A stretch of DNA of 64,000 nt from Psilocybe cubensis (taxonomy: Eukaryota), in the NCBI GenBank assembly GCA_017499595.2, contig CM039000.1, positions 930,001-994,000 on the forward strand, in the 5' to 3' direction. A model generated the notes under the pieces. It searched no databases. It saw only the letters and a list, made by a program, of their open reading frames with translations, and was not told the origin of the DNA. Shown here piece by piece: positions 18,880 to 64,000 of this stretch (position 1 is the stretch's first letter; each line of letters opens with the position of its first letter). The translations under genes and the position numbers were made by a program.

Positions 18880-19789
18880 ACCCATACCTTTTTGCGAGGT
18901 CCAGAATTTGAATGGTGACCGGGCCACTTCATGACTGAGGGAGTTGCATATTTGTGTAAATTGTGCCAACTTGTCTGGCAGGGAGTCTACAAGAACTGAT
19001 TGTGATCATTCATGTCGACCACAAGTCGAAGAATGGACCAAGTTCAGGAATTCAACCTTCGAGGTGCTATATCTCGGATTAGATCAGGTTGACGTTTCAT
19101 ATAACGTTTGTAACGTAAGAGGCGTACTCAACGTTTAGTTGTAGATTGGCGCTCAGAAAAGCCAATGCATATCCGAAACTTTGAACGGATTATACTGATA
19201 TAGTTGACTATGTCGGTGCCTGGAATGCAGGTCAGAAACCAGAGTTGTAACACGTTATGCGAGGTTCGTCGATGTTACTAGTAGGGTCCTCGGAGAAAGC
19301 TACTGAGACGCCAAAGTCGAAGGGTGGATAGCGAACCTCCTTTGTATCCCGTAATTCTGCTCTTTGAAATCCAGGTGTACTGGTTACAGTACTATAGGTG
19401 CGTCATGAGCGGACCACACACCTGTCAATGGAGGCAACGAGAATCTTTGGGATCCTGTTCGCTTCTTGGAACAAAACGAGTATAGTAAGGGTACGTCGCA
19501 TTCTTTGCCTGCGGAGGGTGAGCTGGGACGAGTACAGTTTCATGATGCTTTCCGTATGGATGCTTTTGGGATCGTATATCGGTGTAGAGGGGAAAAGGGT
19601 TGGACAACACCCACTAATTTTCGAGTGTTTTGGGAAACTCCAAACAAGGCTTTTCCAATGAGTATTCCGGTTTGGGGTCACAATCACAGGCACGGTCGGG
19701 GCGGGGATTAAAATAAATGTAGGATGTAGGAGAAATAAAATCAATATTGTCAAATACCAGTGACCGACTTGGCACGAGCCTGAGAACAT
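18880..19789 (-). pseudogene. Degenerate copy of the kinase-like family
   Basis: Homologous motifs (HWKSLVW, PPQAKNATYPY, EVRYPPFDFG, PYNPFK) are split across frames by indels, and the middle exons are deleted. Confidence 0.8.
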
Positions 19790-20608
19790 GACAGTAATGT
19801 AGTATATTGGCCGGAGGCTAGTAAACAGGATTTAGAAGGATCTCAAAATGGAATCCGTGCTCCATGATTCTGATTGGTCGGAAACTCCGTACCGTACTGA
19901 TCCTTCCAAACATTCACACATACCATTAGCACAAGGGGCACCATAACAATAGTCTCATGAGTCAGAGCATGACCCGACGTCGAAGGATGAGTATTGCTTT
20001 TTTATTTCTATTAGCACGAAACATTTTGCTAAGTGCCCAAGAACTAGTATATTCAATTACTTTAGGAAAGCTGAACGAGAACTGTTCCTGGTGTTCTTTT
20101 TGGGATTACTTCTTACCACTTCTTGCTAAAAACACGGGTGCCAGTGTAAAGGTTTTATTTAAATGGTGTCCAGTATATACTATGGTTTGCGTGTCGTACC
20201 CTGACATCAATCTCCAGTGAGGGGGCATGAGGCGCCGGAGTCTACAATAGAAACCATTATCCCCTTTGGGCAGTTATACACCTGTCACAGGAACTCCGGC
20301 ACTCCGGCACTAGGGTGTCAGGAGGGCGGATGGATACATTTGACCAAAAGGGGAAAATAGAATCATTGGGAAGAAGACGAAGAGGACAATGGCCCGCGAA
20401 CAATGGGCACTGGGCAACCGTGGATTTTTGTGCGGCATCATTTCAAAGCCTGATTATCAGTGATCAGTAGATGACATGACAGATGTATATGTCTGATGTT
20501 CTGCCCTGATTTGAGTCACTTCTCGGAATATAATCTGAATGAAATCCTCGCCAGTGCCAGTGCCCGTCACCAACGAGCCGCTGCAGATCCGTCTTTAGAT
20601 TTACTGTG

Positions 20609-20737
20609 TAGCTTCTTGAGATACTAATTTAGATAATGTTATAGACAAGGCAATCAACAGTATGCCGGCAGAGTAAAGAGTTTACTAAACAAAGCATTAT
20701 TTTAACAATGTAATGTGCTAAGCCGTACATGACGAGG
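20609..20737. repeat. About 130 bp direct repeat, copy 1 (copy 2 at about 23227-23358)
   Basis: tagcttcttgagatactaat..gataatgttat..ggcaatcaacagta..gctaagccgtacat..cgaggt occurs at both places and brackets kinase copy 1. Confidence 0.85.
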
Positions 20738-20752
20738 TAGTACCTTGTCCCA

Positions 20753-22284
20753 TCAATCCATACTAGGTTCATCAACATCCACTGTAATGGGTTTTCCATT
20801 TTTTTTCTTGATTATGCCACCTAAGGTATGCAAGCTTAGCTTGTGAATGAATTTGGTAGGTACTCAATGACCTACCTCGGCGCCATATCCAGCTATCAAA
20901 AGATGACCCAGCAATTTCAGGACTGAGGCCGTCACATATTTCTTTGAATCTAGCAAATGCCTGACTCGCTGTCAACTGATTAGGGTCATTCATATTAACC
21001 ACCGAATCAAAAAATGGCCCTAGTTCAGGGACTAGGCTTTCGAGGTGCTACAGAAATGAACCGTGAGCAGTTAGAACAAAGACATTGACAAACAGTGAAG
21101 TCAATCTCACTCTGACATATGTTTGAAGGACGCTCGCTAGTAGAGCTACATCTGCTTTGAAGGGATTGTACGGATAGATAACCGAATCATCCGGTATGTT
21201 GCGTATAAACCATGAATTATAGCGTATCATGCGCAAATCTTCTATGACCGTGTCCTCGGGGAAAGCTATGGAAATACCAAAATCGATAAGGGCATATCGA
21301 ACTTCGTTCGGATCTCGCAAACCCGTTCTACGAAAATATTCCAAAGGTTGAAGAATCACATTCATGGCAGTATTCTGGGCCATAAAGTCAAGATGCACAA
21401 TTTTGTTGCTGTGTAGGAAAGCAAATGTCTATTTTAATTTATGTTAAGACACGACCCCAGCGGTTGGTAATGTTACTGAACTGACCTCTAACCATATTAG
21501 TGCGAAGGACATGAGTTGGGAGACGGACTCGAATTCGGCTACACATGCACAATCCCACCTGATAAACCACGGTGTCACGGAACAGTTTCCAAAATAAAGT
21601 CAAGGACCTACCTGGGCATCACCACAAAGATGAACTTATCGAATTTTATGTATTCTAGAGCGTAGATGGTGTGGTTTGCCGGATTATCTCGCAGTTTTTT
21701 ATCGTTAAGGCGTTGAAACACCTTCAGCTCTTGCGTCGGTTTGTCTACTTCCGATATGACTCTAGAAAAAATGTTTCCCGACCAATTAGAGCGTGAATAG
21801 GTTCAGTTACAGGTACTCACTTAATCACTACTTCTCTTCCTTGAAGATCACGAGCAAACCAAATACGCGGGTACAGTATAGATCTTGGGACTGGCTCGTT
21901 GCTTCGGACGTGACGAGCATAAGGGTAAGACGCGTTCTTTGCCTGAGGGGGCCAGGGAGCAGGGACTATTTCATTCCACCGATCCGGGTCTGGATGCTCT
22001 CGATAGAACCGATACCCTCGGGAGGAAAAGAAAGGGTCCAAAAACAGCCAGAAGTATTTAATGGAGTATAATTCCAGCGTCATTGAATCGGAATCGTAAG
22101 TTTTGTAATGCCAGTCTTTAAGTGTCTCCGGAAATTTCAAATTCGATCTCATGAGACGCCATGTCCAAACCAGACTTTCCCAACGAGAGTCGAGCTTGAT
22201 AACTCTTATTCGAGTTCGCTTGGTGGTAAAAAATATGAACGCGGAAGAAATGGCGACAATACCTGTGATGGCAATAGTAGACAT
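20753..22284 (-). CDS. Atypical protein kinase-like protein (AgaK1-like), copy 1, 6 exons
   Basis: Hydrophobic N-terminus, GREVVIK, QELK, NHTI, HLDFMAQN, IDFG, YNPFKAD. Splice sites are intact. Confidence 0.85.
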
Positions 22285-23518: not shown

Positions 23519-23670
23519 AAAATAAGTAAGAAACAGATCTAACTGCCCACATTGACATCCACATCCGGAGTCGAAGTTGTCTCCATGGTGGGGGTGCCGA
23601 GGTCTTTTTTTGTCATTATCTCTTTCCTTGGCGGAGGACGGTGTTCGACCACCCCTGCTCTCTCTGTTAA
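23519..23670 (-). pseudogene. Relic of the HOS2 3' end (last codons, stop and start of 3'UTR)
   Basis: aataagtaagaaacagatctaac..gacatcc..ccggagtcgaagt..ggtgggggtgccg matches 28224-28370. Confidence 0.85.
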
Positions 23671-28241: not shown

Positions 28242-30241
28242 CTAACCGTCCACGTCGACATCCATGGCCGGAGTCGAAGTCGTCTCCGTGGTGGGGGTGC
28301 CGGGGTCTTTTTCTTTTTCTTTGTCTTTATCCCTTTCCTTGTCAGCAGCCGCTGCTCGACCACGACCCCTACCTCTGCCACGACCTCTCCCTCTTCCTCT
28401 CTTAACAGGTGCAGGGCTGGGTTCCGGTACGGCGTCATCGTCATCGTCATTCGCGTCGCCAGTTGCACGTGATGGCGTAGCAGGAGTAGGAGGTGCGGAA
28501 ACTGAAGCTGAAGCTGATGCAGCTCCTCTTCCACGACCACGTCCTCGCCCCCGTCGGCCGCCCCTCGCCCTCCGCCCAGTACTGCCACCACGCGCTCTGG
28601 TGCTTGGCGCCGGGGAATCGTTGTCATTGTCGTTATCGCCTTCGTAATATTCAGCACGGTTTGTTGATCTTCCGAGGCGTCGTTCTCCTGCCTGGCCTGT
28701 GCCCTTCTCTTCATCCTTCTCTTCAGCTGTCTTGTTCTCATCCGCGAGCAGGCCTTGGAGATCAGGAGGGATCTCTTGCATAGCTACGCTAGGTGCACCT
28801 TGAAGGTATCGAAGCTTATTTCGAATGCTAATGGTGATACGTTGGAGCGAGGCAGGCGAATTTTGATTGTCGACTTTCCCCGTCAAGGGTGGATGAAGTT
28901 TCCAATGGGAGTCGGCGAAGAATGAATCATACACAGTCCTCGGGAGTTCGTCAGGTATTTCCGCCCCTACCAGAACAGAGGTTTCATACGTCCAGCAGCG
29001 ACTGACATTCTTGATAGTGTAGCCTCCACCACCAACGACCAGCAACGGGACGTTAAACTTGCGTACAAAATTGACGCACTCACCATGCGCCGCGATGGAG
29101 AGATTGAACGCGCCAAGCCGATCACAGCCAAGCGAATCGGCACCACACTGCAAAACAATCGCGGACGGACGGAAGGCGGTGACGGTGTCCCCGATGACGG
29201 TCTTAAAAATTGTGAGATACATCTCATCGTCGATGCCGTCTTGCAAGGGAACGTTGAGAGCAAAATGTTTTCCGGGGCCGCTCCCGTTGTCGTCGAGCTT
29301 TCCTGTCCCGGGGAAGAAGTCGCCTGTGTATTTGTGAAATGAGACAGTCATAACGCGATTGGACTGGTAAAACGCGAGTTCCACGCCGTCGCCGTGATGG
29401 ATGTCAATATCGATATATAAAACTCGGGGGTGATATCTGAAAATGTTCAGTACGAATACGAGCTTTGAAGATAATATAAACCGAACCTCAAAAGCTCCAG
29501 TATGGAGAGGACAATATCGTTCACATAACAAAAACCACTAGCTTCGCCTCGTTTCGCGTGGTGGAGTCCCCCAGACCAATTGATAGCTATGTCAGTAGTG
29601 CCTGCGCATAGTTTACGTGCCCCTGCAAGAGAACCTCCTGCGTACATGCGACAAAAATCGTACATATCAGCAAAAATAGGGCAATCTTCGACACAATTGA
29701 AGTTATCAATCATTTGCCTCATTTGTGATTGATTTTGTGGGGTGACCCTGTTAAACCCATTTATCATCAGAATCTAAAAAGGAAAAAGCGACGTTTAAAA
29801 GTATTGACCTTGAAAGAAAATCAATATAGTCATGATCGTGATAGTTTTCCAATTCTTCCTGAGTTGCGGGTCTCGGGTCGTAAATGTTATGGATTTGCTT
29901 GTCCAAGCCGTATCCCATGACAAGGGCATTCGTCAAAGTAAGGCGATGGGGTTTCATTGGATGCCTTTCCTGACGACGGAAAACTGGTGAGTCCATGCCA
30001 CCGTAAATCATTCTTCAAAGCGTACACCATAGTGTTGCGCTCCAACCCCCTTTGGAAAATAATATGACACGATTGGACGAGAATGAGGCTTTTAGCAATT
30101 GTAAGCTGCCCGATACCTTTGAAACTACAAAAGCTTGCTTACATTGATACGCTCCGTAATCGGTTGAGCGGTCCCATGAATCCCGCGATCGGCGAAATAT
30201 GGTGAAGAAGAGAATGTCGTCGCCTGCGAAGACCGGACCAT
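28242..30241 (-). CDS. HOS2: Class I histone deacetylase, Hos2-like, with RG-rich low-complexity tail
   Basis: [87 protein letters not shown]. The [13 protein letters not shown] and AHGECV signatures favour Hos2 over Rpd3. Confidence 0.9.
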
Positions 30242-30841
30242 TATGGTATTCGAGTGCTGAAGAGTAGCTTTGAGCTGTTAGTCTGTGTATCGTGGGATCA
30301 ATATAAAGTGTCGAATTCGAAATGTAGGTACTAAAAATTCAAAAAGTGAGCAGTGGTTTCGGTGCTTGTTGAATCACCTAGAATGCTCACTATCGCTGTC
30401 AAAGGCTATTCAGGACTGCCGTGGGTAACAAATGCAAGAAGGAGGGTTATGGTCGAAGTTTAGTTTCCATACGGCTACAATGGACGACCAATACACCGAG
30501 CGAGTTAAGGAAGACGCAATGGGTCGGAATCTGGTAGACTTTAGCAAGAATGCTTGCCCCAAGCGCACGATCTCAAGGCACTGAGCGCTGAGTCATCAGC
30601 TTTCCCGCGGTATAGTTGTTCCTGCCCGCCCTTTGTTTGTTTGGAATGGCCTGAACCAAACAACGAGCTCTTCGCGAGGTACAATATCGTTCACTTTTGG
30701 TTCACCTTCTGAGCTCGCGGCTATCATCCAGTTTGGTGCAGAACCACTACGCAAGCCCAAGCACCCAAATAGCAAACCAGCTGTTCGAAAGACTAAAATC
30801 GCCCTATGAGCCGTTAGAAAGGCATACCTTTTCTGAGCTCA
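30242..30841. promoter_or_regulatory. Putative bidirectional promoter between HOS2 and PFS2
   Basis: About 600 bp between two head-to-head start codons. Confidence 0.5.
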
Positions 30842-32912
30842 ATGTCTACGACTACTCTTCCTATATTGCTGCCGGGATATGCAATTCCAAAGTCGATATC
30901 TACACCACACCTTGACTGGAAACCACGAAGATACCTTTCGGAACCCCAACCTCCGCCTCAGGATGAAGGAAAGTTGTTGGAGCAAGAGTTAGCAAACGCG
31001 CGACAAATGATTGATGGCAAAATCATTAAGAAGACACGACCTCGGCGGACGGTGGATTACAACGGTGGCATGGGTAGATGGGCTCTGGTAAGCATAGTGA
31101 ATAGTCTTGTTTAGTATCACTAATAGCATCCTAGCTTCGGAAACTTCGACCCAATCCTAACTATGTACCTAACCTGCGGCCTGCTCCTCCTTTCATCATC
31201 GACGTGAGGGTTTTCGCGTAAATTACACCCACATTGTTGCTTCACTAATTTTCTCTTTAGCTCCTTCCTCCTAAAGCATACCCCGAAAACCCATCTACTT
31301 CATTATGTACCAAGTTCGTGCACACATCCACGAATAAAATTCGCTGTCCGGTGAACGTCGTCACGGTACTGTCATCTCTTTTTCTTGGATAACATTCACG
31401 TTTATGATTTGACTGTACAGTGGACACCAGAAGCTCGACGTGTTCTGACTGGATCAACAAGCGGAGAATTCACGCTATGGAACGGTCTTACCTTTAATTT
31501 CGAAACCATCCTTCAAGCACACGACTCTGCCATCTGTGCTATGACATTCACCCATTCTGGCGCCTACCTTGCCTCAGCAGATAAAACAGGAATCATAAAA
31601 TACTTTGAACCTAATATGAACAACTTAACGGCTTGGCAAGGCTCCTCTTCGCGCGAAGCTATCCGCGGGCTAAGCTTCAGTCCAGATGACAGACGGTTTG
31701 CAACAGCAAGTGATGATTCAAGTATCCGGATTTGGTCCTTTGCAGAGCGACGGGTTGAGAGCGTGTTGAGCGGTATGTTATTGTTATCTATAGCAGTATT
31801 CAACACACTAATCTCCTTGAAGGACACGGATGGGATGTGAAATGCGTGGAATGGCATCCAACGAAAGGTCTTTTAGTGTCTGGTAGTAAAGATAACCAAA
31901 TTAAATTTTGGGACCCTCGTACGGGAACTGTACTGTCGACCTTGTACGTAGACTTATACATTTCTAATTTTCCATGCTCATATTTCGTCGCAGACACCAA
32001 CACAAAAATACTATACAAGCTCTTTCCTGGTCACCGAACGGCAACATGGTCGCTAGTGCCTCTCGAGACCAGACCGTTCGAGTTTTTGATATCAGAGCAA
32101 TGAAAGAGTTTAGGGTTCTCAAAGGTCACAAGAAAGAAGTTTGTTGTATGTCTTTACTGTTCTCGCTATCCCCACTTCACTTCTCATTTGACTATTGAAA
32201 TATAGCGGTGACTTGGCACCCAGTGCATCCTTTGCTGGTTTCCGGTGGATCAGAAGGAGCGATCCTCCACTGGGACCTTTCCACTCCTGACGACAACTCC
32301 TTTACACAAGCTGTGTCCGCGCCCCGAGCAACGCTGTCACAGGCACATGACTCGAATGTGTGGTCAGTCGCATTCCACCCATTTGGTCACTTACTCGCCA
32401 GTGCCTCCAACGACCACACAACGCGCTTCTGGAGTCGAGAACGCCCGGGAGACGCGACTTCTGTATTCTCTGGTGGTGGAGAGAAACCACCGGAGATTGT
32501 CGACATGCAAGGGCAAGAAGAGGAGGAGGACGCGATGGTGCCCGGCTTCGGAGCTGGAGGCGGTGGCGGCAACGCTGCTTGGTGGGGCAAAGAGGAAGAT
32601 GGCGGCGCTGGTGGTGGTCCCTCAGACATTGGTCCTAGGAGAGGCGGTGGTTACCCAGATCATGCGGAGGAAGATTTTATACCAGGCTTTGGAGGTGGTC
32701 CACCAGCAGATTCCCGGCCGAGACAGAACGGGTACTCGTCCATGGCTCACGACTCTTATGAAAACAGCGAGAAGGATGAGTTTGGTCGGGACCGTGATCT
32801 CAACAGTGGTGGGGGACACGGCCACAGTGATGACTGGGGCCGTGGAGGAGGCGGTGGCGGTGGTTATAACCGCGGAGCTCGTTTCGGACCGTCTAGACGG
32901 GGGCGATATTGA
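30842..32912 (+). CDS. PFS2: Polyadenylation factor subunit 2 (WDR33 homolog), WD40 repeats
   Basis: [89 protein letters not shown]; Gly/Arg-rich tail. Confidence 0.95.
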
Positions 32913-33065
32913 TATCTTTTGTTGTAATTATTCGTTCTGATTCAACTCTACTGTCGTGTACTGAACGCAGAGGAAAAGATGCATATGAAACAATTCTATC
33001 ATAATGTGTTTAATCTTCCTTCAAGAAATACTCGGTCAATCATGAGTCAATTAGCCTGACCAATT

Positions 33066-34522
33066 TTAATCTGCAGCCAGCAGGCGTTTCATGTGTTTAA
33101 TCTTCTTCTTTTTCACCTGGAGATTTAAACCAATTTCATTCCCTTCGTACAACTGGAACGGCTCAAATTACTCACTTTAATCTTTTCTTGCAGCTTCCCA
33201 GCCAGTTCCTTCTCCAATCTGTCGGTCGCAAGGTAATCCGTCTTTTTATCTGATAAGATTGATTAAACATTTCATATAGCAAAACGCACCAAAACGTCCA
33301 TTCGGTTCGAATCAATCCGTACGACCATGGTGTCAACAAACTGTGTCCTGTTTTGCTTTTCTTCTTTGAGCTCCTAGACGAATAGAAACGGTCAGTATAC
33401 TTCACGTATCTTCAAACATCATCAAATCAATTAGCTAAACCGACCTTTTTAGGTTTTCTGTCTTGTGGGTGCGCAGTACCAGATTTAGAACCATCCAACG
33501 GCATCGGTTCGACTAGACACAGAATACCAAAAGTCAAGATATGCGTTGTTGGAAGAAGGGCCACTCAACCATCGTTGTTGTTAATTTCAATAATGTTGGG
33601 TGACCTTGGAGTCGGATATCGTCCCCCACTGCTATCCTCCCTCAAGCTCCTTGTAATCAACACTAATGGTGAAACTTAGAACACTCAGATCCGACCAGCA
33701 ATTAGTGCACCTACCATGTGCATTTGCTGTGATGCCTGTCGGAGGAGGCCTTGAATATATGGTATCCTCCTCAGCCCAAATAGTGGGTGGTATGTTTCCT
33801 CCGTCCTCCTCTGGCACCGGTATCTCGAATACAAATGTTGCGAACGGCAGCATATTCTGCTTCTCGTCGTCGATGATGTTCATGAGGTCAGCATTGTTCT
33901 TCTTGTACTGTTGCCTGTCAGGGCCTACCACCCATTCGGGTTCTGCGACCTTTCCGCGTATACGCCTAATCTCCAACCGAAGGCTGCAAGGTGACTTCGC
34001 TTGTTCTATTCGAACCCTTATGTATGGGCTAACACGCTTTATTAAGGATGTCAAGACTCACCTGCGGCTGAATATGGACATGTTCCAGCTGAATAATCGC
34101 ACAACCTCCCCGCCTTCAAACATCCTTTGATTTTGTATGGTAAATTATGGTACCCATATGTTGTCCTCATGTTTTGGCTTTTCTGGCGGGTCTTATCCAT
34201 TGTAACGACGGCTACGCAAAAGTCTTCGGTCTCCATCCTGTAGTATCCATTCCTGATAAACACCTGGCAGAGAGCGGATACGGGCCGTTGTCCATCTGCC
34301 CTTCTCCAAAGAAGAACAAACGGCTATATAACAGGTCAATCGTATGCAAAATCGGAGTTGCAAGAGGCTCACTGTTTTTGGCTCCAGGTTAACACTGGCG
34401 GTTACTGTCTGTAGGTCCTCGTCTATAACGGGTTCTGTCGACAGCATTTGACAATCCCCTTTGTAACAGTGCTTAAGCCAAGCTTCGAAGCCTCGGTACC
34501 TAACTTTGTAGGACGGCTCCAT
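33066..34522 (-). CDS. Hypothetical protein, multi-exon
   Basis: Consecutive ORF pieces bounded by GT-AG signals (MEPSYKVRYRGFEAWL..., SLRLEIRRIRG..., basic C-terminus VKKKKIKHMKRLLAAD). The family was not recognised. Confidence 0.6.
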
Positions 34523-34904
34523 GCCCTCGTCACTCGTAGTAAGAGGAGCTTCACCTAAGAAAACAAAGTTGTACTAGGGTGCCCCATTTCGACCTTACTT
34601 GGAGCTTTATAAGTTCCCTCGACGACCCCGGCAATCTCCTTATTAATTGACTCGACTTCGCGCTGCGATCAGAGTTTCTTTGTGATGGCGAGAGCCCCTC
34701 ACTCCCGACAACGCGAACACAGAGAAATGCTGCTAGAGATTATTGAGCATAACGCTTATTGGGATTTCCGCTCTCAAAACCTCGCAATCTGACAAACAAT
34801 AATGATTGAGGAGGATCACTCAATTACAGGAAAGAAAGGTATTAATATGCCCGTTCAGTAGAAAGGGAGTGACGGAGGCGCCAGATATGCGTTGAGAAAC
34901 CAGG

Positions 34905-36410
34905 CTAGTCAGTAATTGTTATAACATCCCCATCTCTCTTGTAGATAACACCACCTTGAAACACTACTTGAGCTTGAAGAATGAAGTTAACATTTAAATA
35001 CATACCTTGGCGCCAAATGAAACCATCGAAGGATGCACTAGCCACCTCGGGGGTAAGATTATTGGATATGTCTGTAAACCGAGACAGTGCCTGGCTGGCT
35101 GAAGGCTGATTGGGGTCATTGATGTCAATCAAGGAGTCGAAGAATGGCCCAGGCTCTGGAATTTTACTTTCGAGGTGCTGAAAAGTGTAGATTATTTATC
35201 AGGAAACTGTACACCATTGATCATTGCAGGCAATCTCACGCTGACAAATGTTTGAAGACATGTGCCCATAAAAGCAACGTCCACTCGAAATGGGTTGTAT
35301 GGGTAAGTGATTGATTCCGCTGGTACCCAATGCCGGTCAAAGCTAAGAACGTGGTCCATACGCGCCTCTTCAATGACGGTGTCCTCAGGGAAAATGACAG
35401 CAGCATCAAAGTCAAAGAGGGCATAGCGGACTTCTTTTGGATCCCGCACTCCTGTCCTGCGATAAATTTCTGCAGTGGTCATAACAGCATTCATCCCCAT
35501 ATTTTGTGCAAGACAGTCTAGATGCACGATCCTGTTGCGGTGTAAAAAACCAAAAGCCTATTCTGACCAGTTCAATAGATGTTTCAACGTGATCAGCGTG
35601 TTATTACCTCGAGGATTATCTTGGTGAGATGCATAAGTTCAGAAACATTGGAAAATTCCGGCTCAATAGCACTATCCCATCTTTACAATATGAAAATGAG
35701 CGGGATCCAATGAATAGAACTATTGGCACCTACCTGGGCATCACCACAAATACAAATTTGTCGAAAGTAATGTATTCGATGGCGTAGATGGTATGGTTGG
35801 CGGGGTCGGATCGCAACCTTTTGCTGTTAAGCAGTTGCATGACCTTCAGCTCATTTGACGGGTTGTCGACCTCAGATATCACCCTGAAAATATGAAAGGT
35901 GATCAACAAGTGGGGTAAACTCGATGGATACACTTACTTGATTATAACATCTCTTCCAAGTGCATCGCGAGCTGCCCATATACGTGGTGCCCACGTAGCC
36001 CTCGGGATGGGAGTCTTGCTTGGGAGTTGACGAGAATAAGGGTACGAAGTAGCTTTTGCTGCGGGTGGAAATGGTGGAGGGTTTAGATTTCCAAGGCCGA
36101 TGGGATCTTGTTGATACATCGCATAACCTCGCGAAACGAAGAACGGGAGCACGAACATCCAGCAACTATGAATGTAGATAAAATCACCATGTGAATCTTC
36201 GAGATTCTTCAAATTCCAGTCCTCGAGAGCTTCTGGAAATATGATGTTCGACCTCATGAGACGCCACGTCCAAACCATACTTTCCCAACGAGAGTCAAGT
36301 TTAATCATTCTAACACCGCGTCGTTTTGCCTTGAAAAGTAAGGTTGCAGGAAGGACAAAAACGAAAATAAAAGTAATGAAGTACATGAATGAAGGGAGAA
36401 AGGCGGGCAT
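34905..36410 (-). CDS. AgaK1-like kinase, copy 3 (DFD variant)
   Basis: GRDVIIK, HLDCLAQN, ALFDFDAA, YNPFRVD; 6 exons. Confidence 0.85.
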
Positions 36411-36793: not shown

Positions 36794-38322
36794 TTACAAA
36801 GATTCAACAACGGTAATTAATTCCCCGTCCTTCTTCTCGATCACGCCTGCCAGAAATCATGGTCAGTTTTGTCAATCAGTCTGGTCAAATTTTAGATCAA
36901 TACCATTAGACCAAACTCGAGTATCCAATGGTACCTGGGCAATATCGGGGCTCAGACCATCACATATCTTTGTAAAGCAAGCGAGAGCCTGGCTAGCAGA
37001 GAGCTGATTTGGGTTATTCATGTCAACCAATGAGTCAAAAAATGGACCAAGCTGCGGAACAAATGGTTCAAGATGCTATATCAATGACTGTCAGCAGCAG
37101 CCTGCTGTGAAATTACAAAATAACTCACTCTGACGTAGGTCTGAAGGCTAGTGCCTAGAAAGGCCATGTCTAATTTGAATGGATTGTACGGATATTTGAC
37201 TGATTCATCTGGTACATCATGCAGCGCGAAGCTGTTATAACGTGTCAAACTTGCTTCCTCAATGTCGGTGTCTTCAGGAAAAGTAATAGAGGCACCAAAA
37301 TCGAATAGAGCATAGCGAACCTCTGCTGGATCTCGCATTCCTGTCTTTCCAATTGTCTCCGAAGAATCCATCACTGCATTCATACCTATATTCTGTGGTA
37401 GAAAATCCATGTGCACGATTTTGTGACGATGCAGGAAATCAAAACCTGTCATTAACCTTATTTAGTGGTCAAACGTCAGGTATAAAATATCGTACCTGGA
37501 AACACGTCAAAGCCAAAGACATAGTCTCGGATACAGTGGCAAAATCGGGCAAAAAGGCACTATCCCATCTTAAAAAGAACGTACAATGAGCGAAGAATAC
37601 TTCAATTGGTTGAAAATGAACATGAATACCTGGGCATTACAACGAAAATGAACTTGTCGAAAGTGATAAATTCAATAGCGTAGATTGTGTGGTTCGCTGG
37701 ATCAGACCGCAAACCTTTGCTATTCAGGCGTTTCATCACCTCGAGCTCTGGGGATGGGTTGCCCACCTCAGATATCACCCTAATGCAACAGTTATTAGTT
37801 ACATACAGCCTCAAATTGAACCACATAACGGAGTGCTCACTTGATTACAACATCCCTCCCAAGTATATCACGAGCAGGCCACATTCGTATTGACCATGCC
37901 ATTCTTTGTTTGACCTGATTGCATGGAACCTGACGAGCATAAGGGTACGACGTGGTTTTCGCAACAGGAGGGAACGGAGGAGGGTTTAGATCGCTAAAAC
38001 CTTCTGCGTCTTGTTGATACATTGCATATCCTCGTGAAGCAAAAAATGGCCGTAGGAACAGCCATACGTGCTTTACGTAGACCAGGTCGTCCGCAAATGT
38101 CTCGTCTCCCTTGTAATACCAATCTTTGAGTGTTCGTGGAAATGTGATTTTTGACTTCATGAGACGCCAAGTCCAAACCACACTTTCCCTTCGGGTTTCG
38201 AGGCGAATCACCCTAAGTTGGACTCTTTTTGTGGTAAAGAAGATTAAAGCTGGAAGAAGGACAGCCACGGTCACAAAGACGAATGACATTAAGGAAAGAT
38301 CGATGAGCGCAAAGTGTCGCAT
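36794..38322 (-). CDS. AgaK1-like kinase, copy 4
   Basis: Starts MRHFALIDLSLM; contains GRDVVIK, HMDFLPQN, FDFG, YNPFKLD. Confidence 0.85.
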
Positions 38323-38379
38323 TCGAAGATTTCGGTGACCTGCAAGGTCGTGGGATCAGTTCGGAAAGCTCTTTCGGAG

Positions 38380-39300: not shown

Positions 39301-39509
39301 GAAAACAGCACCGTGCATATGGAGGAGAGCTGAAGAAGGTTATATCGAGAGCGCTTGATGGTATATATTTCCGTTCTTGAGACCGCGTAATTCCGCAAAA
39401 AAAAATTACATTGATATAAAGGGGCACTCAGTTATAGGACAGAAAAGTATCAATACGCCCGCTCATCACAAAGAAGTGATGGAGGCAGCGGATATGCGTA
39501 GAGAGCAGG

Positions 39510-45119: not shown

Positions 45120-45320
45120 TCGTTCATGATTTTTTCATGTGGTTACCTGTCAGCAAAAGTCTCTCGAGATACAAAATTCAACCTCATGAGACGTCACGTT
45201 TGGGTAATGTCCAAACCAAACTTTCGCACTTTCCCAACGCGAGTCCAATTTAAACATTCTAACCGTAAGACAGAAGCAAAAGGCATAATAACTTAAATCA
45301 GTAACGAAGAAATGGAAACC
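45120..45320 (-). pseudogene. Degenerate exon-1 fragment of a kinase copy
   Basis: ctcatgagacgtcacg..tgtccaaacc..ctttcccaacgcgagtcc matches the LDSRWESLVWTWRLMR region with indels. The upstream flank 45405-45483 matches 62572-62652. Confidence 0.75.
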
Positions 45321-45680
45321 TGATATAAAGATTCAGCTCGGATCAATTGTAGATATCTAACCGTATATTGACCACTGTGGATCAGGCTGATTCGCGAGCC
45401 TTCTGTGAAAAGATACTACGCGTTAACACCGAGGAGCAGTAGCCTGGATTCTATGTGTCTGATACATATGACTCAAAACCAATCTGCCACGAATAATTGC
45501 CTTGAGTCTGTTTTTAGCGTTGGATAATCTTTTGTTGTACATCCTTTTGTGCGACTATTCCAGGTTTGTAACACGCCCTGGTAAGAATAGTAAACTGAGC
45601 CCAAAACGATGGTCTATCAAAACACATTACAAGGAACGTCACCTATTCATCGCGCAACAGCCATACACTCAGATATTGGG

Positions 45681-45956
45681 CTATGCAGCAATCGTTAAGG
45701 GATTACCAGATCTCTTTTGAACTACGCCTTAAAATAATTCTGGTTCTGCTTGAAGCAGGATTGAGATGCTTAATTAGATACCTTTTACCCACAGGAAACC
45801 GTCAGCTGAGGGTGCGCCTTTCACCTCAGAGCTAAGATTATTCCATATATCACTGAATTGAGCCAGAGCCTGCCTAGCTGATAGCTGAGAGGGGTTATTC
45901 ACATCAACCAACGAATCGAAGAACGGGCCAAGCTCTGGAATTTTACTTTCGAGGTG
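45681..45956 (-). other. Orphan, open-frame duplicate of kinase exons 5-6
   Basis: tttcag|HLESKIPELGPFFDSLVDVNNPSQLSARQALAQFSDIWNNLSSEVKGAPSADGFLWVK|gtatct..taag|GVVQKRSGNPLTIAA-TAG. Confidence 0.85.
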
Positions 45957-46084
45957 CTGAAAAGTGTAAATTATCTATCAGAAGCTGTACACTATCGATC
46001 ATTGTACAGGAGAGAAAGGTATTCATATTCCCGTTCAGTAGAAAGGGAGTGACGAAGGCGACAGATATGTGATGAGATACCAGG

Positions 46085-47608
46085 CTAGTCATTAATTGTT
46101 AAAACATCGTCTGTTCTCTTGGAGACAACGCCGCCTTGGAAGACTGCGTGAGCTTGAAGAATGAAATTGGCATTTCATCACATACCTCGGCGCCAAATAA
46201 AACCATCGAAGGCTGCACTAGCCACCTCGGGGTTAAGGTTATTGGATATCTCTGTAAAACGAGATAGTGCCTGGCTTGCTGAAAGCTGATTGGGGTCATT
46301 GACGTCAATCAAGGAGTCGAAGAATGGCCCAAGCTCTGGAATTTTACTTTCGAGGTGCTGAAGCGTAGATTATCTATCAGAAATCTGTACGACATTAATC
46401 ACGGCAAGGAAACTCACCCTGACATATGTTTGAAGACATGTGCCCATGAATGCAACGTCCACTCGAAATGGGTTGTATGGGTAAGTAATTGATTCCTTCG
46501 GTATGTAATGCAAATCGAAGCTGAGAACGTGGTCCATACGCGCCTCTTCAATGACAGTGTCCTCAGGAAAAATGACAGCAGCGTCAAAGTCAAATAGGGC
46601 ATAGCGAACTTCCTTTGGATCTCGAAGTCCTGTCCTACGATCTATTTCCCCAGTATTCATAACAGCGTTCATACCCATGTTTTGTGAAAGACAGTCCAGA
46701 TGCACAATCTTGTTACGGTGCAAAAAATCGAAAGTCTATTGTGACCTCATTCAGTAGATATTTCAAGGTGACCAGCATGTTAGCTCAATTGATTACCTCA
46801 AGGATTGTCTTGGTGAAATGCATAAGCTCAGAAACATTAGCAAATTCAGGAGAGATAGCATTATTCCATCTTTAAAATATGAACATCAGCGCGACCCAAT
46901 AATTAGAAATATTGGCACCTACCTGGGCATCACCACAAATACAAATTTGTCGAAAGTAATGTATTCGATGGCGTAGATGGTATGGTTGGCGGGGTCGGAT
47001 CGCAGCCTTTTGCTGTTAAGCAGTTGCATGACCTTCAGCTCATTTGACGGGTTGTCGACTTCAGATATCACCCTGAAAATATGAAAGGTGATCAACAAGT
47101 GGGGTAAACTCGATGGATACACTTACTTGATTATAACATCCCTTCCAAGTGCATCGCGAGCTGCCCATATACGTGGTGCCCACACAGTCCTCGGGATGGG
47201 AGCCTTAGTTGGGAGTTGACGAGCATAAGGGTACGATGTCACTTTTGCTGCCGGTGGAAAGGGAGGAGGGTTCAGATTTCCAAGGCCGACAGGATCCTGT
47301 TGATACATCGCGTATCCTCGCGAAACGAAGAACGGGAGCACGAACATCCAGCAACTATGTATATACACAAAATCTGCGTCTGTATCTTCGAGATTCTTCA
47401 AATTCCAGTCATCGAGAGTTTCTGGAAATACGATGTTCGACTTCATGAGCCGCAACGTCCAAACCAGGCTTTCCCATCGGGATTCTAGGTGAATAACTCT
47501 GCATGGAACTCGTTTTGTGGTCAAGAAGATTAATGCAGGAAGGACGATAGCCAAGGATACAAAGATGAAGGGCATTAAGGGAAAGACAATGAACGCGAAG
47601 TGTTGCAT
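46085..47608 (-). CDS. AgaK1-like kinase, copy 7 (DFD variant, chimeric)
   Basis: Starts MQHFAFIVFPLM; contains GRDVIIK, HLDCLSQN, ALFDFDAA. Confidence 0.85.
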
Positions 47609-47685: not shown

Positions 47686-48580
47686 ACGTAAACAAAGAGC
47701 AGAGAGCATCCGAGTGGTCACAAAAGCGGCTTGGAAAGGATGATCGCAGTAATCCGGGAGGAAAGAGCCTTGATAAAGAAACTCCAAGTCGCCTGGAGTC
47801 GAATACATTGTTTAGCCTTAAATACATCATTCTTGGTCCAAGAATCCTAGAGTACATACGTCGTTAGGAAAGTGAAAAGTGAAACGCGAACCCCTTACTG
47901 GCTTAGCGTTGAAATGATACGAAGGATTCTTGACTTGTTGTACTCATACAAATGAACTATAAATCCGGTACCCAAAAAAATATAGTAAGAGACAGACCTA
48001 AACGGCCACATCATTGTATCCATGGGCTGTAGTCGAAGTCGTCCCGCAGCCGTGGTGAACGTGCCGAGGATCCATATTCATGCCTCTCCTTGTCAGCGGC
48101 CGACGGGATAACGAGGACCCTCCTTCTACACCTCCTCTTTTCGTTCCTCTCTCAACAAGTGCAGTGGTGGGTTCCGGTCAGGTTCCGGTTCCGCGGCGGC
48201 GTTGTCGTTTTTTGCGTCACCAGCCGCACGTGATGGCGTGACCGGCCCAGGACAGGAGTAAGGGCGCAAAACCTGGTGATGAGCTCGATCTCGTCTTCGC
48301 CCCCGTCCTCGGCGTCCTCCCAGTGTTGGCACTGAGGTCTCTGGTACCCAGCGTCTGACAACCGCTTTCATTGTCGGTATTTTCTTGTAGTACTCAGCCC
48401 CGTTATTCACCTTTGGAGGTGTCGTCGTTTCACCCGCTACCTGGCTCTGGCTGTCTCCTTCTCCTCAGTCTTCTCTTCCGGTGTCCTGTTTTCATTCGTG
48501 AGGCGACCTTGCAGGCTAGTAGGAGTCTCATGCGCGGTTATTCTACCTGGATCCCGAAGTTATCACATCTTGTTTTGTTG
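47686..48580 (-). pseudogene. Relic of HOS2 3' half and downstream flank
   Basis: Matches about 27870-28830, for example PVTPSRAAGDAKNDNAAAEPEP vs [22 protein letters not shown]. Frameshifted. Confidence 0.85.
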
Positions 48581-48587
48581 ACACGCT

Positions 48588-49175
48588 CGTGAAATGGCGT
48601 CGAATGAGAGGTCTTTTGGCCTCTGCAAGTAAAAGACGACCAAATTAACTTTGGGATCCTCAAGTGCACGCAGGTATTTACCTTTCTAGTCTCTTATACT
48701 CATATTTTTGCCTAGACATCAACACACACAAAATATGCAGGCTCTTTCCTGGTCGCCGAACGAACGGTAGCATGGTCGCCAGTGCCTCTCAAGACCGTTC
48801 GAGTTTCCGATATCAGAGCATACATTGAAACCGTTTTGCCTCCTGTCGATTATTGAAAAATAGCTTGACATTCTGTGTATCTTTTGCTAGTTTCCGGTGG
48901 ATCAGAAGGAGAGATATTGTTTCTCCACTGGGATCTCTCCTCTCCCGACGACGAGTCCCTCACTCAAGCCGTGTCCGCTCCTCGTGCAATAGTGCTCTCG
49001 CTGTCAGTCGCACTCTACCCATTTGGCCACATACTCCCCAGTGCCTTCAACGAATACATAACGCCCCTCTTGAGACTTGAACTCCCCGGGGGCTTTATTT
49101 CTGTGTTCACTGGAGGTGGAGATGACCCACCGGAGATTGTCGACAAGCAGAGAACGGAAAGGAAGAGGATATGAT
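48588..49175 (+). pseudogene. Relic of PFS2 3' half, introns retained
   Basis: [35 protein letters not shown] and SVFTGGGDDPPEIVD match PFS2 at 31837-32530, with deletions. Confidence 0.9.
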
Positions 49176-49329
49176 GGTCTCCGTCTTTAGCGCTAGAGAA
49201 GGTGGCTTGTGGGTGCGCAATCTCAGCTTTGACACCATCCGACAACAACCGTTCGTCTAGAAACCGTAGCAAATTAACAGAAACCACATCACGCGCTTTG
49301 GAGAACGGCGACTCATCCGTTAGCGAAGT

Positions 49330-49615
49330 TGTTAATCTCGACAACGTTGGGTATTCTTGGAGTCCGATATAGCCTCCAACCTCTATCCTCCAAGCGCCTC
49401 GTAATCACCAATAATAGGGGCCCTTTCCCGTCTACCCTTATCCAAAGGCGAAAGAATGTTTCCATAACAGGTCAATTACATGCAAATCGAGGATGTCCAC
49501 CTACGAGCTCGCCGTTTTTGGCCTAAACGCGACGGAAATTATCATGTTTGTCGGCCTCTGTCTGAAATGGGCTCCAGTCGACAGCATTTCAAAATTCCCA
49601 TTGTAGCGGCTTAAC
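49330..49615 (-). pseudogene. Relic of the 33-34.5 kb hypothetical gene
   Basis: 49330-49415 matches about 33580-33668 (gttggg..cttggagtc.gatat..ctatcctcc..gtaatca). 49568-49615 matches about 34430-34478 (gtcgacagcattt). Confidence 0.75.
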
Positions 49616-50061
49616 TCAAACTTCAAAGACGTACTTCAAATCGTAGATTGACCCGTCGTCGGTCGCCGTAGTATCTTCTGCTCACGGAACATATGTGACT
49701 AAGGTGCACTATCTCGATCTCACATGGTGCTTTGTGTTTTCCCTGGATAGCCCCTTCCATCACCGTATTAGCTGGCCCGCTTTTGCGCCGCGGTTTGACT
49801 TTCTTTATGATGAGCAAAACTCCTAACTCCCAACAACACGGACATCTAGGAGCGCTAGATATGCTGTTCACTGTAGTTCCACTCTTGAGACCACGGAATC
49901 CCGCAAACAAAACAATACACTCTAGAAGACGGACACCCAGTTATATCAGACAAAGATCGTGGATTCCTGCATATGTCGCGCGTGGTACGATCGAGACAAG
50001 AGGCTAGTATTTTTGTTACATGCCATCTACTTGGCCTTGACTCTGATTCGCAGGCAAATTA

Positions 50062-57420: not shown

Positions 57421-57789
57421 CTAAGTAACGACCTCCAGGAAATCTTCGGGAACGCCGAGAATGTTTGTTCCTGTGGTCCCTGATTTGACCATGTAGGTTA
57501 CATTCCCTAACTGCAATTTCCATCAAGTTCATTGAGTAATTTCTTCAACAGAGAGAGGTCATATTTGAGACATACAGTACGGATATTGAATTGGCCAGTT
57601 GAGACCTGGGATTCGACTACTTGTCCAACAAGACCTTTCGGCGCTCTGTAAACCCCTCCGTTACTGACATAATCTTTTGTGAATCGGACAAATATCCCGT
57701 CTTTGAACTTCAAGTGCCATGGTCAGCATATCGACAATAGAGTGCAAGTGAAATAAACATACCTTTGCTTTCGAAACTCCGTTGGGCAT
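57421..57789 (-). CDS. Small hypothetical protein, 82 aa, 3 exons, possibly an SH3/KOW-like beta barrel
   Basis: Exons 57789-57763, 57707-57576 and 57510-57421, with GTATGT donors and 55/65-nt introns, join in frame. A TATAAA lies about 120 bp upstream. Confidence 0.65.
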
Positions 57790-60500: not shown

Positions 60501-60983
60501 AAGTGCAAAAGGGAGGTAGAACGCCTCCAAGGGAAGGATGTGGATGTGCAAGTTGACGAAGGATTGTCGATGAGGGTAGGGACTATGAGGGTCTGAAACC
60601 AAGGAAATGAGGTCACGTTACGCCTCTTCGCGAAGAGGGTGCATGGACCACCTTGTCACAAGCTAGATCAAGCATCGTTGTCCTTTCATACTGCAAGATC
60701 GGGATAACAGGTATTATTCATGTGCCTTGGAGTTTACAGTCAAGCATGATAATCCCAAAAAGTCGTGATTTAGACGGGCAGTACTAGCAGCCCAGCGAGC
60801 GTTCATACCAAACCATCGAAGTTCATTAGTTCGGATCCTTGGAAATTTTTGCTTGCTAGTAATTTCCCGTCCTGGTTCTGAGGAGGAGGCGTCTTCCATC
60901 ACGTCGGCATGTGCGAGGTTTCAAGTTCACGAAGAATTGTGATAGTATAGATGCGATAGCTGTTAAAGTAGTCAGGGATATGG

Positions 60984-62493
60984 CTAGTCGAGGATTGTTA
61001 TAACATCACCAGATCTTTTCTGAACTACTCCTGGACGAGAAATGCCAGTTAATTTTGAGCATAAGTTTGGCGTCTGATGACATACCGTCTTCCCAGATGA
61101 AGGCGTCAAGAGGAGCGCAAGCCACTTGAGGAGCAAGATCATCGAATATCTTTGCAAAGCGAGCCAGGGCTTGGCTAGCCGAAAGTTGGTTGGGGTGATT
61201 CACGTTAACCAATGAGTCAAAGAAAGGTTCAAGCTCGGGAATCTTGTTTTCAAGATGCTAAAATGCCAACAATGTAGTTAGAAAGCAGTACACCTTCGAC
61301 CACCGCAAGAGACCTCACCCTGACGTATGTTTGAAGACATGTGCCCATGAAAGCGATGTCCATTCGAAATGGATTGTATGGGTATGAGACACTTTCGGAC
61401 GGAACACCATGTAGGTCAAAGTTAAGGTCTCGCCGTGACATCCGCGCTTGTTCAATGACAGTATCCTCAGGAAAGGATACAGAGCCGCCAAAATCGAATA
61501 GGGCATATCGAACTTCCTTTGGATCCCTTAGTCCTGTTCTTCGACTCGTTTCCGAAGATGCCATAACCGCATTCATGCCAATGTTTTGAGGGAGACAATC
61601 TAAGTGCACAATTTTATTGCGGTGTAAAAAATCAAAAGTCTATTACAGATTAACCTATTACTGTTCCAATAAGTCTGTGTAGTTCATTTGCTTACCTCGA
61701 GAACTGTTTTGGCAAAGTGCATGAGCTCAGACACATTGGCGAATTCCGGACGGATAGCACTATCCCATCTTTACAAAAAATAAATGCAAATATTAAGCAA
61801 GGTTTGAAGACACCCACCTAGGCATCACCACGAAGACAAATTTGTCAAAAGTGATGTATTCAAGGGCATGGATTGTATGATTAGCCGGATGGGAACGCAA
61901 CTTTTGACTATTAAGAAGCAGCATAGTCTTCAGTTCGTCCGATGGCTTGTCAACCTCTGATATCACTCTGTGAATATTTAATATTGACAAGAAGTGGTTC
62001 AGTTGAACGCTTATTTGATTATAACGTCCCTTCCAAGTGCATCGCGAGCTGCCCAGATTCGTATTGACCATGATATTCTTGGGTTGGGAGTCTTACTTGG
62101 GACCTGACGTGCATATGGGTACGACGTGGTCTTTGCGGCAGATGGTACACAAGGAGGAATTAAGTCGCCAAAGCTGACAGGGTCTTCTCGGTACATCAAG
62201 TACCCCCGCGAGAGAAAAAATGGGTGTAAGAGCAGCCAGATACGCTTTACGTAGATTAAATCCTCGAAAAAGGTTTCTTCGCTCTTGTGATACCAGTCCT
62301 CAAGTGACTTTGGAAAGGAAGTTCGTGTATTGATCCAAGCCAGGCGCCATGTCCAAACCAGACTCTCCCAACCAGAGTCGAGCTTGGTGAATCTGACTTG
62401 TACACGTTTGGTGGTCACTACGATCAAGGCAGGAAGGAAAACAACAAAAGCCAAAGTAATGATATCCATGGAGAGAGGAACAAAGGCGAACAT
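60984..62493 (-). CDS. AgaK1-like kinase, copy 11
   Basis: Starts MFAFVPLSMDII; contains GRDVIIK, HLDCLPQN, FDFG, YNPFRMD. Confidence 0.85.
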
Positions 62494-62863
62494 TTGAACA
62501 TTGATATTACATAAAGCCTATATTCAGAGTGGAGGCAACTAACGGCATAATGACAACTATGATTTTCCGGCGTGAGAAGATACGCATTAACACCAAGGGC
62601 ACAGGTAGCCTGGACTGTGTGTGTATCACATATATGTGGCTCAACACCAATTCGTAGATAATCTCCATGAAATCTGCTTCGAGATTTACATCATAGTATT
62701 GTTAGGGTGTTTTGTTCCGCATCTTATACCTTATTACAACTGAGCGCCGTCACGGTGGCAGGGGATTCCTGTCGTTTGCAAAAAAAATCATAGATTCAAC
62801 CAAAAAAATTACAAGGCAACATCATTGATTCATCTCAGAACAGTCGTGCACTCAAAAATCGAG

Positions 62864-64000
62864 CTACTCAGTAATTGTTATAACATCCCCATCTTTCTTG
62901 TAGACAACACCGCCTTAGAAAACTACGTGAGCTTGAAGAATAAAATTAGCATTTCATCACATACCTCGGCACCAAATGAAACCGTCAAAGGATGCACTAG
63001 CCACCTCGGGGCTAAGATTATTGGATATCTCTGTAAAGCGAGCCAGTGCCTGGCTTGCTGAAGGCTGATTGGGGTCATTGATGTCAATTAAGGAGTCAAA
63101 GAATGGCCCAAGCTCTGGAATTTTACTTTCGAGGTGCTGAAGCGTAGATTATCTATCAGAAATCTGGACGGCATTAATCACGGCAAGGAAACTCACCCTA
63201 ACATATGTTTGAAGACATGTGCCCATGAATGCAACATCCACTCGAAATGGGTTGTATGGGTAAGTAATTGATTCCTTCGGTATGTAATGCCGGTCAAAGC
63301 TGAGAACGTGGTCCATACGCGCCTCTTCAATGACAGTGTCCTCAGGAAAAATGACAGCAGCATCAAAGTCAAAGAGGGCATAGCGAACTTCTTTTGGATC
63401 CCGTACTCCTGTCCTGCGATCTATTTCCGCAGTGGTCATAACAGCATTCATCCCCATATTTTGTGCAAGGCAGTCTAGATGTACAATCCTGTTGCGGTGT
63501 AAAAAATCAAAAGCCTATTTTGAGCTGTTCAGTAGATGTCTCAACGCGATCAGCGTGTTGTTACCTCGAGGATTATCTTGGTGAAATGCATAAGCTCGGA
63601 AACATTGGCAAATTCAGGAAAGATAGCACTATCCCATCTTTACAACATGAATATGAGCGCGACCCGATGATCAGAAACATTAGCGCCTACCTGGGCATCA
63701 CCACAAATACAAATTTGTCGAAAGTAATGTATTCGATGGCGTAGATGGTATGGTTAGCGGGGTCGGATCGCAGCCTTTTGCTGTTAAGCAGTTGCATGAC
63801 CTTCAGCTCATTTGACGGGTTGTCGACTTCAGATATCACCCTGAAAATATGAAAGGTGATCAACAAGTGGGGTAAACTCGATGGATACACTTACTTGATT
63901 ATAACATCTCTTCCAAGTGCATCGCGAGCTGCCCATATACGTGGTGCCCATACAGCCCTCGGGATGGGAGTCTTGCTTGGGAGTTGACGAGAATAAGGGT
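62864..64000 (-). CDS. AgaK1-like kinase, copy 12 (DFD variant; 5' end beyond window)
   Basis: Nearly identical to copies 3 and 7; HLDCLAQN, ALFDFDAA. Confidence 0.85.

Follow-up and report, generated by a model that had tools for sequence, protein, structure and literature searches.

A tandem array of AgaK1-type kinases with predicted membrane anchors in Psilocybe cubensis is retained by purifying selection and still turning over

Introduction

The window analyzed here, 64,000 nucleotides (nt) of Psilocybe cubensis contig CM039000.1 (assembly GCA_017499595.2, positions 930,001 to 994,000 of the forward strand), carries a tandem array of twelve atypical kinase genes that, by the names public sources give to their relatives, belong to the Agaricomycete AgaK1 family. 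The array is real, long-lived, still changing and kept by selection, and no tie to self/non-self recognition was found here. Its anatomy and history can be described with high confidence. With respect to function, the best reading is that the array is not an allelic self/non-self determinant, and it is tentatively proposed to form a battery of membrane-tethered kinases with different partners and expression levels, which would act in biotic-environment or stress signaling.

AgaK1 is a named family for which, as far as the literature searches show, no functional study turned up. Likewise, the literature searched yielded nothing on an anchored AgaK1 subfamily, on AgaK1 tandem arrays or on this locus, the family-defining paper and preprint supplements lying outside the search. 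Other Agaricomycete kinase families (FunK1, TKL) have expanded lineage-specifically, with functions given as not known in the available part of the source (10.1101/349894), and the array resembles these in being a lineage-specific kinase expansion. The locus offers a compact test case, in that one deletion would remove most of an anchored subfamily.

Organization of the array

Twelve complete exon sets were located on the minus strand from 20.7 kb to the window end by a motif scan combined with exon-wise tblastn. They were designated K01 to K12, K01 being cut by the window end and the other eleven being complete. A tblastn search with the exons of one copy added four remnants (two pseudogenes and two fragments), which matches the inventory of the initial annotation; the tblastn matches of the remnants run over 60434-59728, 45944-45789, 45314-45228 and 19420-18913. 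The co-oriented, head-to-tail copies and their remnants span 18.9-64 kb, and two further copies lie past the window on the same contig (C3 of the genome, G000), namely K00 at G000:C3:~996.2 kb and the inverted K13 at C3:1015.5 kb. The extent of at least 45 kb claimed initially is thereby reached and exceeded, but the array is not continuous, since 28-34.7 kb is taken up by three other genes, for a histone deacetylase (HDAC), a WD40 protein and an unknown protein. The features of the array are as follows (window coordinates; aa, amino acids).

18886..19420, minus strand: kinase pseudogene, exons 4-5, with stops and frameshifts, K11/K00-like
20753..22284, minus strand: K12, intact kinase, 414 aa; public P0170 is the same model
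23519..23652, no strand assigned: third HDAC 3'-end remnant, upstream of K12, 80% nt identity
23860..25367, minus strand: K11, intact kinase, 409 aa, 95.6% nt identity to K00 over 1.6 kb
28242..30400 (start approximate), minus strand: class I histone deacetylase, PF00850 at E 3.8e-52, spliced joints seen; presumably HOS2-like
30900..32912 (start approximate), plus strand: WD40 gene, matched in Pfam by WD40 only; taken by us to be PFS2-like
33459..34719 (limits approximate), minus strand: gene X, protein without Pfam match, member of the duplicated block
34905..36410, minus strand: K10, intact kinase, 411 aa, 92.6% nt identity to K01
36794..38322, minus strand: K09, kinase with a one-base frame break at ~37446
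38335..39504, no strand assigned: second decayed duplicate, HDAC 3' end and region upstream of gene X, 69-78% nt identity
39510..41028, minus strand: K08, intact kinase, 412 aa
42281..43769, minus strand: K07, intact kinase, 403 aa, identical to P0005; the structure-modeled copy
45216..45959, minus strand: kinase fragments, exons 5-6 (45959-45687) and a piece of exon 1 (45314-45216)
46085..47608, minus strand: K06, intact kinase, 414 aa, mosaic of K10/K08/K01-like tracts
47687..49945, no strand assigned: decayed colinear duplicate of the HDAC-3'/WD40-3'/gene X block (27.9-34.9 kb), 65-71% nt identity
50062..51539, minus strand: K05, intact kinase, 401 aa
52689..54192, minus strand: K04, intact kinase, 407 aa
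55451..56955, minus strand: K03, intact kinase, 408 aa, identical to P0003
59707..60434, minus strand: decayed kinase pseudogene
60984..62493, minus strand: K02, kinase with an AT donor in intron 1
62864..64000, minus strand: K01, AgaK1-type kinase, start codon beyond the window at G000:C3:994355; chimeric, with its own N-terminus and a K10-like and K06-like body

All twelve copies share five introns, which measure 47-63 nt and agree in position and phase from copy to copy. The spliced products of the eleven complete copies are 401-415 aa long, with 54-93% protein identity among the twelve. The six-exon plan described initially thus stands, but the coding status of every copy does not, as only ten of the twelve have exclusively GT-AG introns. 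In K02 the intron-1 donor reads ATAAGC (AT, not GT), and the reading frame is open if this intron is spliced; the public model (P0004) omits exon 1, and the copy is probably broken by its AT donor. In K09 the frame is off by one base at the conserved intron-3/exon-4 junction (~37446); five alternative donor/acceptor pairs could restore it, with weaker donors and with conserved sequence altered or deleted, and the public model is devoid of the catalytic loop. Sequencing run X7 matches the K09 region over 3954 bases except for one extra base somewhere within it, so the break is possibly an assembly error, and K09 may be either a pseudogene or such an error. Public P. cubensis proteins are identical to K03 (P0003, 100% over 407 aa) and K07 (P0005). 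Two other public models, P0006 (gene X with K10) and P0001 (K00 with K01), are fusions and probably annotation errors.

Relation to the AgaK1 family

Database searching yielded 699 cluster representatives at E<=0.001, the look-alike clusters being mostly basidiomycete, and named relatives include proteins labeled 'other/AgaK1' of Coprinopsis cinerea, Hysterangium and Ephemerocybe. The named AgaK1 protein P0036 was matched at a search E of 2.6e-46, and K07 aligns with the C. cinerea 'other/AgaK1' protein P0161 at 31% identity over 380 aa (pairwise E 3e-55). Moreover, the array groups with named AgaK1 proteins in a 38-row clade with support 98 in a quick IQ-TREE run, of which the careful search is unfinished, and in a 44-row clade with support 97 in FastTree. 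An AgaK1 classification, named as a check in the initial annotation, is thereby borne out. Array and family have in common the lack of GxGxxG and the motifs FFxxxGY, PYAR and NPF-x-x-D; the array differs in its more strongly hydrophobic anchor and in being non-RD (lacking the Arg before the catalytic Asp) in all copies, whereas P0161 has HRD.

Several traits of the array are properties of the family at large. GxGxxG occurs in only 1 of 102 family members, so its lack is family-wide. Of 115 relatives with a residue at the position in front of the catalytic Asp, 48 have Arg there, the C. cinerea AgaK1 among them, and the others have Leu, Gly, Cys or a different residue, with repeated flips between the RD and non-RD states within the family. 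Hence the non-RD state is no stable marker, and its use as an argument for immunity in the initial annotation is weak, also because the array kinases have no ectodomain. At the beta3 Lys position (the column of K07 Lys150), 16 of 114 relatives have Arg, with retained catalytic Asp and Asn, and nucleotide binding in the family may be unusual in mode. A hydrophobic N-terminus (17-residue mean >=1.6) was found in 21 of 35 named ingroup proteins from nine genera and in none of four outgroup proteins, some negatives possibly being truncated models.

The subfamily has expanded more than once. A second tandem of the same subfamily, consisting of five more divergent copies with an extra intron, lies on contig C8 (G000:C8:2032-2042 kb) of the 46.6-Mb genome. 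The fourteen copies of C3 and these five constitute one clade and thirteen Mucidula proteins, several of them from contigs of equal length, a separate one, which indicates two independent bursts, in P. cubensis and in Mucidula. Among the matches listed, most named species have one or two hits and two have at least 13; no metagenome locus was confirmed. With a distant relative as query, about 23 more AgaK1-like loci were counted as matches, gene integrity being no part of the count. They are clustered in four other places, with 15 in the 120 kb examined of C9:546-714 kb, 3 on C6, 4 on C11 and 1 elsewhere on C9, which brings the genome total to at least about 42 clustered AgaK1-like loci, 23 of them by match only.

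Kinase fold and membrane anchor

A model of K07 made with AlphaFold2 from a 123-row alignment (predicted local distance difference test score, pLDDT, 94; predicted template modeling score 0.91) has the bilobed eukaryotic protein kinase (ePK) fold, with helices at residues 3-22 and 33-46 and a long N-terminal extension helix (62-84) ahead of the kinase domain. Folding from a single sequence gave an unusable model (pLDDT 37). Against known structures the model reached a best Z of 16.9 (root mean square deviation 3.2, 220 aligned) and a Foldseek E of 3e-9 to PAK1, and its matches were evenly spread over many ePK groups at 10-20% identity. A sequence search of solved structures gave only weak ePK matches (best E 0.0013), Pfam PF00069 scored the array kinases at 17-27 bits, under its cut-off of 31.7, and four single exons had no Pfam match. 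A structure-atlas search with residues 1-120 gave no usable match, and in a viral structure library only generic kinases were retrieved (9-19% identity), so that viral origin is not indicated. The array kinases are atypical kinases with an ePK fold.

The residues K150, E161, H236, D238, N243 and D273 are conserved across the array. All fourteen C3 copies carry [DE]V[IVM]IK, HxD(C/F)xxQN and DF(G/D/S), and thus the beta3 Lys, HxD, Asn and DFx Asp, while the alphaC Glu, likewise present in all fourteen, was placed by alignment; the catalytic loop reads HLD, HFD or HMD in each (non-RD), and none of the fourteen has a Gly in the beta1-beta2 loop and hence none has GxGxxG. Apart from DF(G/D/S), these motifs had been described in the initial annotation and recur in every copy, as does its hydrophobic N-terminus followed by basic residues. 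Given this retention of catalytic residues, kinase activity is probable for the copies.

The opposite explanation, in which the copies are pseudokinase decoys or scaffolds with little phosphotransfer and a role as bait or adaptor, is quite unlikely. The ZED1/ZRK cluster of Arabidopsis is an analogue of such a decoy pseudokinase. The missing glycine-rich loop and the occasional Lys-to-Arg replacement among relatives agree with this explanation, as do the absence of the catalytic-loop Lys and the degenerate APE-like motif in the array. It is opposed by the catalytic positions retained in all fourteen copies, where the ratio of nonsynonymous to synonymous substitution rates (omega) is lowest, and by the conservation of H236, D238, N243 and D273 in at least 90% of 123 relatives.

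At the N-terminus, each of the fourteen copies has 20-31 mostly hydrophobic residues followed by 3-6 K/R within 12 residues, with only 0-1 basic residues ahead of the segment, and the best 19-residue hydropathy is 1.7-2.9 in the eleven complete window copies. Nothing precedes this segment in any of the fourteen, and no ligand-binding ectodomain is present. According to the positive-inside rule, the basic flank of a membrane helix stays in the cytosol, and the segment with its trailing basic residues is accordingly predicted to be a signal anchor for a cytosolic kinase. The membrane anchoring suggested initially is thus upheld as a prediction, by hydropathy, basic flank and the modeled helix 3-22 of K07.

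Duplication, selection and gene conversion

Between K10 and K11 stands an intact HDAC-3'/WD40-3'/gene X block, of which the K05-K06 spacer is a colinear ghost with 65-71% identity. Another ghost is located in the K08-K09 spacer, and a third remnant is found upstream of K12. The colinearity indicates that the array grew in part by duplication of a kinase-gene X-PFS2-HDAC block, a growth route that is new here. The co-duplicated housekeeping passengers decayed and the kinases did not, which indicates that the kinases were kept by selection; the decayed passengers serve as an internal control for this selective retention.

Codon analyses support the same conclusion. They included the K02 and K09 models despite the non-canonical junctions and, after removal of gapped columns and of everything ahead of K07 residue 25, covered 376 codons. 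Over these, omega is 0.21 under model M0, and pairwise comparisons gave a median synonymous divergence (dS) of 1.83 and a median omega of 0.15 (91 pairs, saturated ones excluded). The kinases are under purifying selection, with omega about 0.2. Regional values are lowest in the DFG region, catalytic core and N-lobe (0.07-0.12) and highest, at 0.28-0.37, in the activation segment, the hinge and the beta1-beta2 loop; a few sites, such as 131, 206, 241 and 305, are near-neutral. Positive selection was not found (M2a equals M1a; M8 versus M8a, p=0.71), conversion and saturation limiting the power of these tests; M7 versus M8 gave p=0.018, yet the extra class has an omega of only 1.09.

Duplication and turnover are ongoing. 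K00 and K11 are recent duplicates (dS 0.06, 95.6% nt identity over 1.6 kb), and these, together with the pseudogenes, block ghosts and conversion, substantiate the birth-and-death evolution proposed initially. Recent ectopic gene conversion is indicated by an identical intron 1 and by sharp switches of identity: intron 1 is the same (54/54) in K01, K06 and K10, of which the other introns are mostly 10-35% different, K01 and K10 are 100% identical over codons ~53-114 and have unrelated N-termini, and the nearest paralog of K06 shifts along its length from K10 to K08 to K01. A test resembling the pairwise homoplasy index (p=0.005) and run tests, uncorrected for rate variation or for the 91 pairs, agree with this.

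Nearly neutral build-up in a duplication-prone region, or an assembly artefact, is by now largely refuted and extremely unlikely. The four remnants, the two doubtful copies and the duplication nearby of Argonaute genes and of a small repeat element would fit such build-up. Copies with 54-93% protein identity and an omega of about 0.2 at dS well above 1 do not, nor does the contrasting fate of passengers and kinases, and an artefact is contradicted by independent runs that cover the stretch and by the splicing of K06 as predicted.

Strain variation and transcription

Four sequencing runs (X7, X9, X10 and X12) were aligned to 28.0-48.0 kb, or 20 of the 45 kb, the strains possibly being related cultivars. 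X9 differs at 166 of 7737 positions (2.1%) in six listed array pieces (range 0.9-6.1%) versus 134 of 5838 (2.3%) in flanking genes. In X12, the only raw-read run, depth was 30.6 over K09-K07 versus 30.5 in control bins, i.e., single-copy. X7 is identical over 28.0-34.9 kb (1 difference) and 36.3-40.2 kb and about 1.6% different thereafter, a switch inside the array that suggests free recombination there. Coverage holes at the 5' end of K06 (X7 and X9) and of K09 (X9) are leads, since holes of this kind are not proof. K08 has an inserted base near codon 6 in X7 and in 27 of 52 X12 reads, which may be compensated by another difference. Doubled depth over K10 and K06 arises because reads of K01, which lies outside the aligned stretch, pile there; the K01-specific 5' end is present in X12, X7 and X10. 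Loose ends at 43316, 43645, 43664, 43686 and 47687 were rejected as new chimeric alleles, as they match K04, K02, K01 or the 27871 region.

X10 is not recorded as RNA and was treated as RNA-like from its spliced joints. It joins K06 across introns 2, 3 and 5 exactly as predicted, which supports that K06 at least is transcribed with the predicted splicing, and expression, initially proposed as a check, is thus seen for this copy. Depth in X10, a poor measure of expression, was 142-223 for K06/K10-type sequence, about 15 for K07 and K08, 0-0.75 for K09 and 21-40 for flanking genes.

These data bear on the explanation of the array as an allorecognition locus, at which haplotypes would differ in kinase set and mismatched fusion would lead to cell death, as at somA of C. 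cinerea. According to the available part of its description (10.64898/2026.06.24.733965), somA is the first mapped basidiomycete incompatibility locus and contains kinases in variable number, each paired tail-to-tail with a NACHT gene and with a leucine-rich repeat (LRR) gene adjoining; its alleles generally share less than 50% protein similarity and differ in gene number. The array resembles somA, as far as that account goes, in its clustered kinase genes in a mushroom-forming fungus; it is mosaic and turning over, and the K06/K09 holes and the frameshifting K08 insertion allele are leads in the same direction. In contrast, the array kinases are head-to-tail and their alleles about 2% apart, no more than the flanks in run X9, whereas the somA alleles reported there are deeply diverged. 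The switch in X7, the flat depth of X12 over K09-K07, the lack of an ectodomain and the lack of positive selection also argue against allelic recognition. None of the 40 PF05729 (NACHT) matches in the genome lies on C3, although very diverged NACHT genes could escape, and no NACHT/LRR-type frame was among those inspected in C3:920-1033 kb. Allorecognition is therefore very unlikely. The proposed step from this locus to immunity or somatic incompatibility finds no support in ordinary divergence, absent positive selection and a contig without NACHT matches, in a small sample, and the divergent haplotypes and copy-number changes expected across isolates were not seen within the aligned 20 kb.

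Possible functions

In the tentatively favored proposal, one N-terminal helix would hold each kinase in the membrane with its kinase domain in the cytosol. For want of a receptor domain, the kinases would have to act downstream of or beside another sensor, like plant receptor-like cytoplasmic kinases. Copies arose by tandem and block duplication, swap sequence by ectopic conversion and are retained by purifying selection; the observed divergence is concentrated in loops whose counterparts in other kinases are turned toward substrates or partners, and may reflect different partners. Plant receptor-like cytoplasmic kinase clusters such as Pto/Fen and ZED1/ZRK are tandem, membrane-tethered and devoid of an ectodomain, as the array is (by prediction, for the tether). 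The array differs in having no specific structural kinship to them and no linked nucleotide-binding leucine-rich repeat receptor (NLR), and in a family labile for RD/non-RD. Non-RD kinases have been associated with immunity, according to the part available of PMC8463890; compared with non-RD pattern-recognition receptor kinases, the array has the non-RD loop and not the ligand-binding ectodomain.

A biotic role is suggested, with the same reserve, by recurrent species-level bursts, turnover, conversion, nearby Piwi loci, F-box-like genes close to the C8 cluster and the somA precedent. In the accessible parts of two reports, one C. cinerea AgaK1 gene was 5.9- and 7.1-fold down with bacteria (PMC4704728) and one AgaK1 gene correlated, downward, with the response to fungal co-culture (PMC13214342). 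Several points weigh against this proposal. Neither of these published changes is an induction, both being decreases in genes other than those of the array; positive selection was not detected; loop variability is expected in any kinase family; and the Argonaute neighborhood is possibly one local accident. Moreover, with AgaK1-like loci clustered elsewhere in the genome, clustering is normal for the family here and the array is not exceptional. As to the anchor, it is predicted from hydropathy and structure modeling only, and in four of the five C8 copies the first in-frame Met lies just past the anchor position, so that these seem unanchored unless an upstream exon was missed.

Developmental or physiological signaling, with copies kept by dosage or by a split of expression among tissues or stages such as mycelium, primordium, cap and spores, and with no defense role, is a possible but somewhat unlikely alternative. 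Purifying without positive selection and the very uneven X10 depth among copies, for what that measure is worth, are in line with it, and Agaricomycete kinase families are, in the part of the source available, both expanded and developmentally regulated (10.1101/349894). The strongly species-specific copy number among the matches listed (1-2 versus at least 13) and the turnover still going on fit poorly with a conserved program. Within the favored proposal of a signaling battery, the kinases may serve in defense downstream of a sensor. Its furthest extension is unlikely: AgaK1 arrays would constitute an unrecognized arm of mushroom innate immunity, with receptor-less anchored baits or executioners, re-expanded independently in several lineages and reshuffled by conversion, that would sense microbial effectors or foreign cytoplasm at a membrane and set off cell death locally, either with unlinked NLRs or without them. 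Should the role be defensive, a receptor-less kinase module would be added to fungal immunity just as the first basidiomycete incompatibility locus proves kinase-bearing; if it is not, the array is an ordinary but well-documented lineage-specific expansion.

Neighborhood of the array

Three of the eight Piwi loci of the genome lie within about 17 kb of the array ends. The genes around the array are the following.

3238-6660 and 7847-11205, minus strand: two tandem Argonaute genes, left of the array
11731-12519, 13312-14395 and 16609-17800: glyoxalase-like gene, Per1 gene and glycosyltransferase, between the Argonaute genes and the array
L032:~2800-6200 (G000:C3:~1006-1009 kb), plus strand: third Argonaute gene, 10-12 kb right of the array

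The clusters of AgaK1-like genes of another subfamily lie at the following places.

G000:C9:546-714 kb
C6:1008-1014 kb
C11:1600-1607 kb

Gene orientation varies within the C9 cluster, which also contains one inverted duplicate pair and two ADP-ribosylglycohydrolase genes adjoining kinase copies, and two F-box-like genes lie ~11-15 kb downstream of the C8 cluster. Reading frames at L033:4747-6847 (plus strand), directly after K13, have no Pfam match and contain motifs that we take to resemble those of FunK1 kinases. The 2.7-kb spacer from K03 to the pseudogene (56990-59700) is apparently non-coding and has no other match in the genome. Upstream of K11, at 25542-25693, lies an element of ~150 bp with 29-nt inverted ends that resembles a miniature inverted-repeat transposable element, the first 70 bp of which match ~40 places in the genome. 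On several contigs (G000:C1, C7, C9, C10 and C12) several of these matches are paired, with exactly 24,963 bases from one to the other, as at C12:1362980 and 1387943 or C7:3060186 and 3085149, which suggests a repeated 25-kb element.

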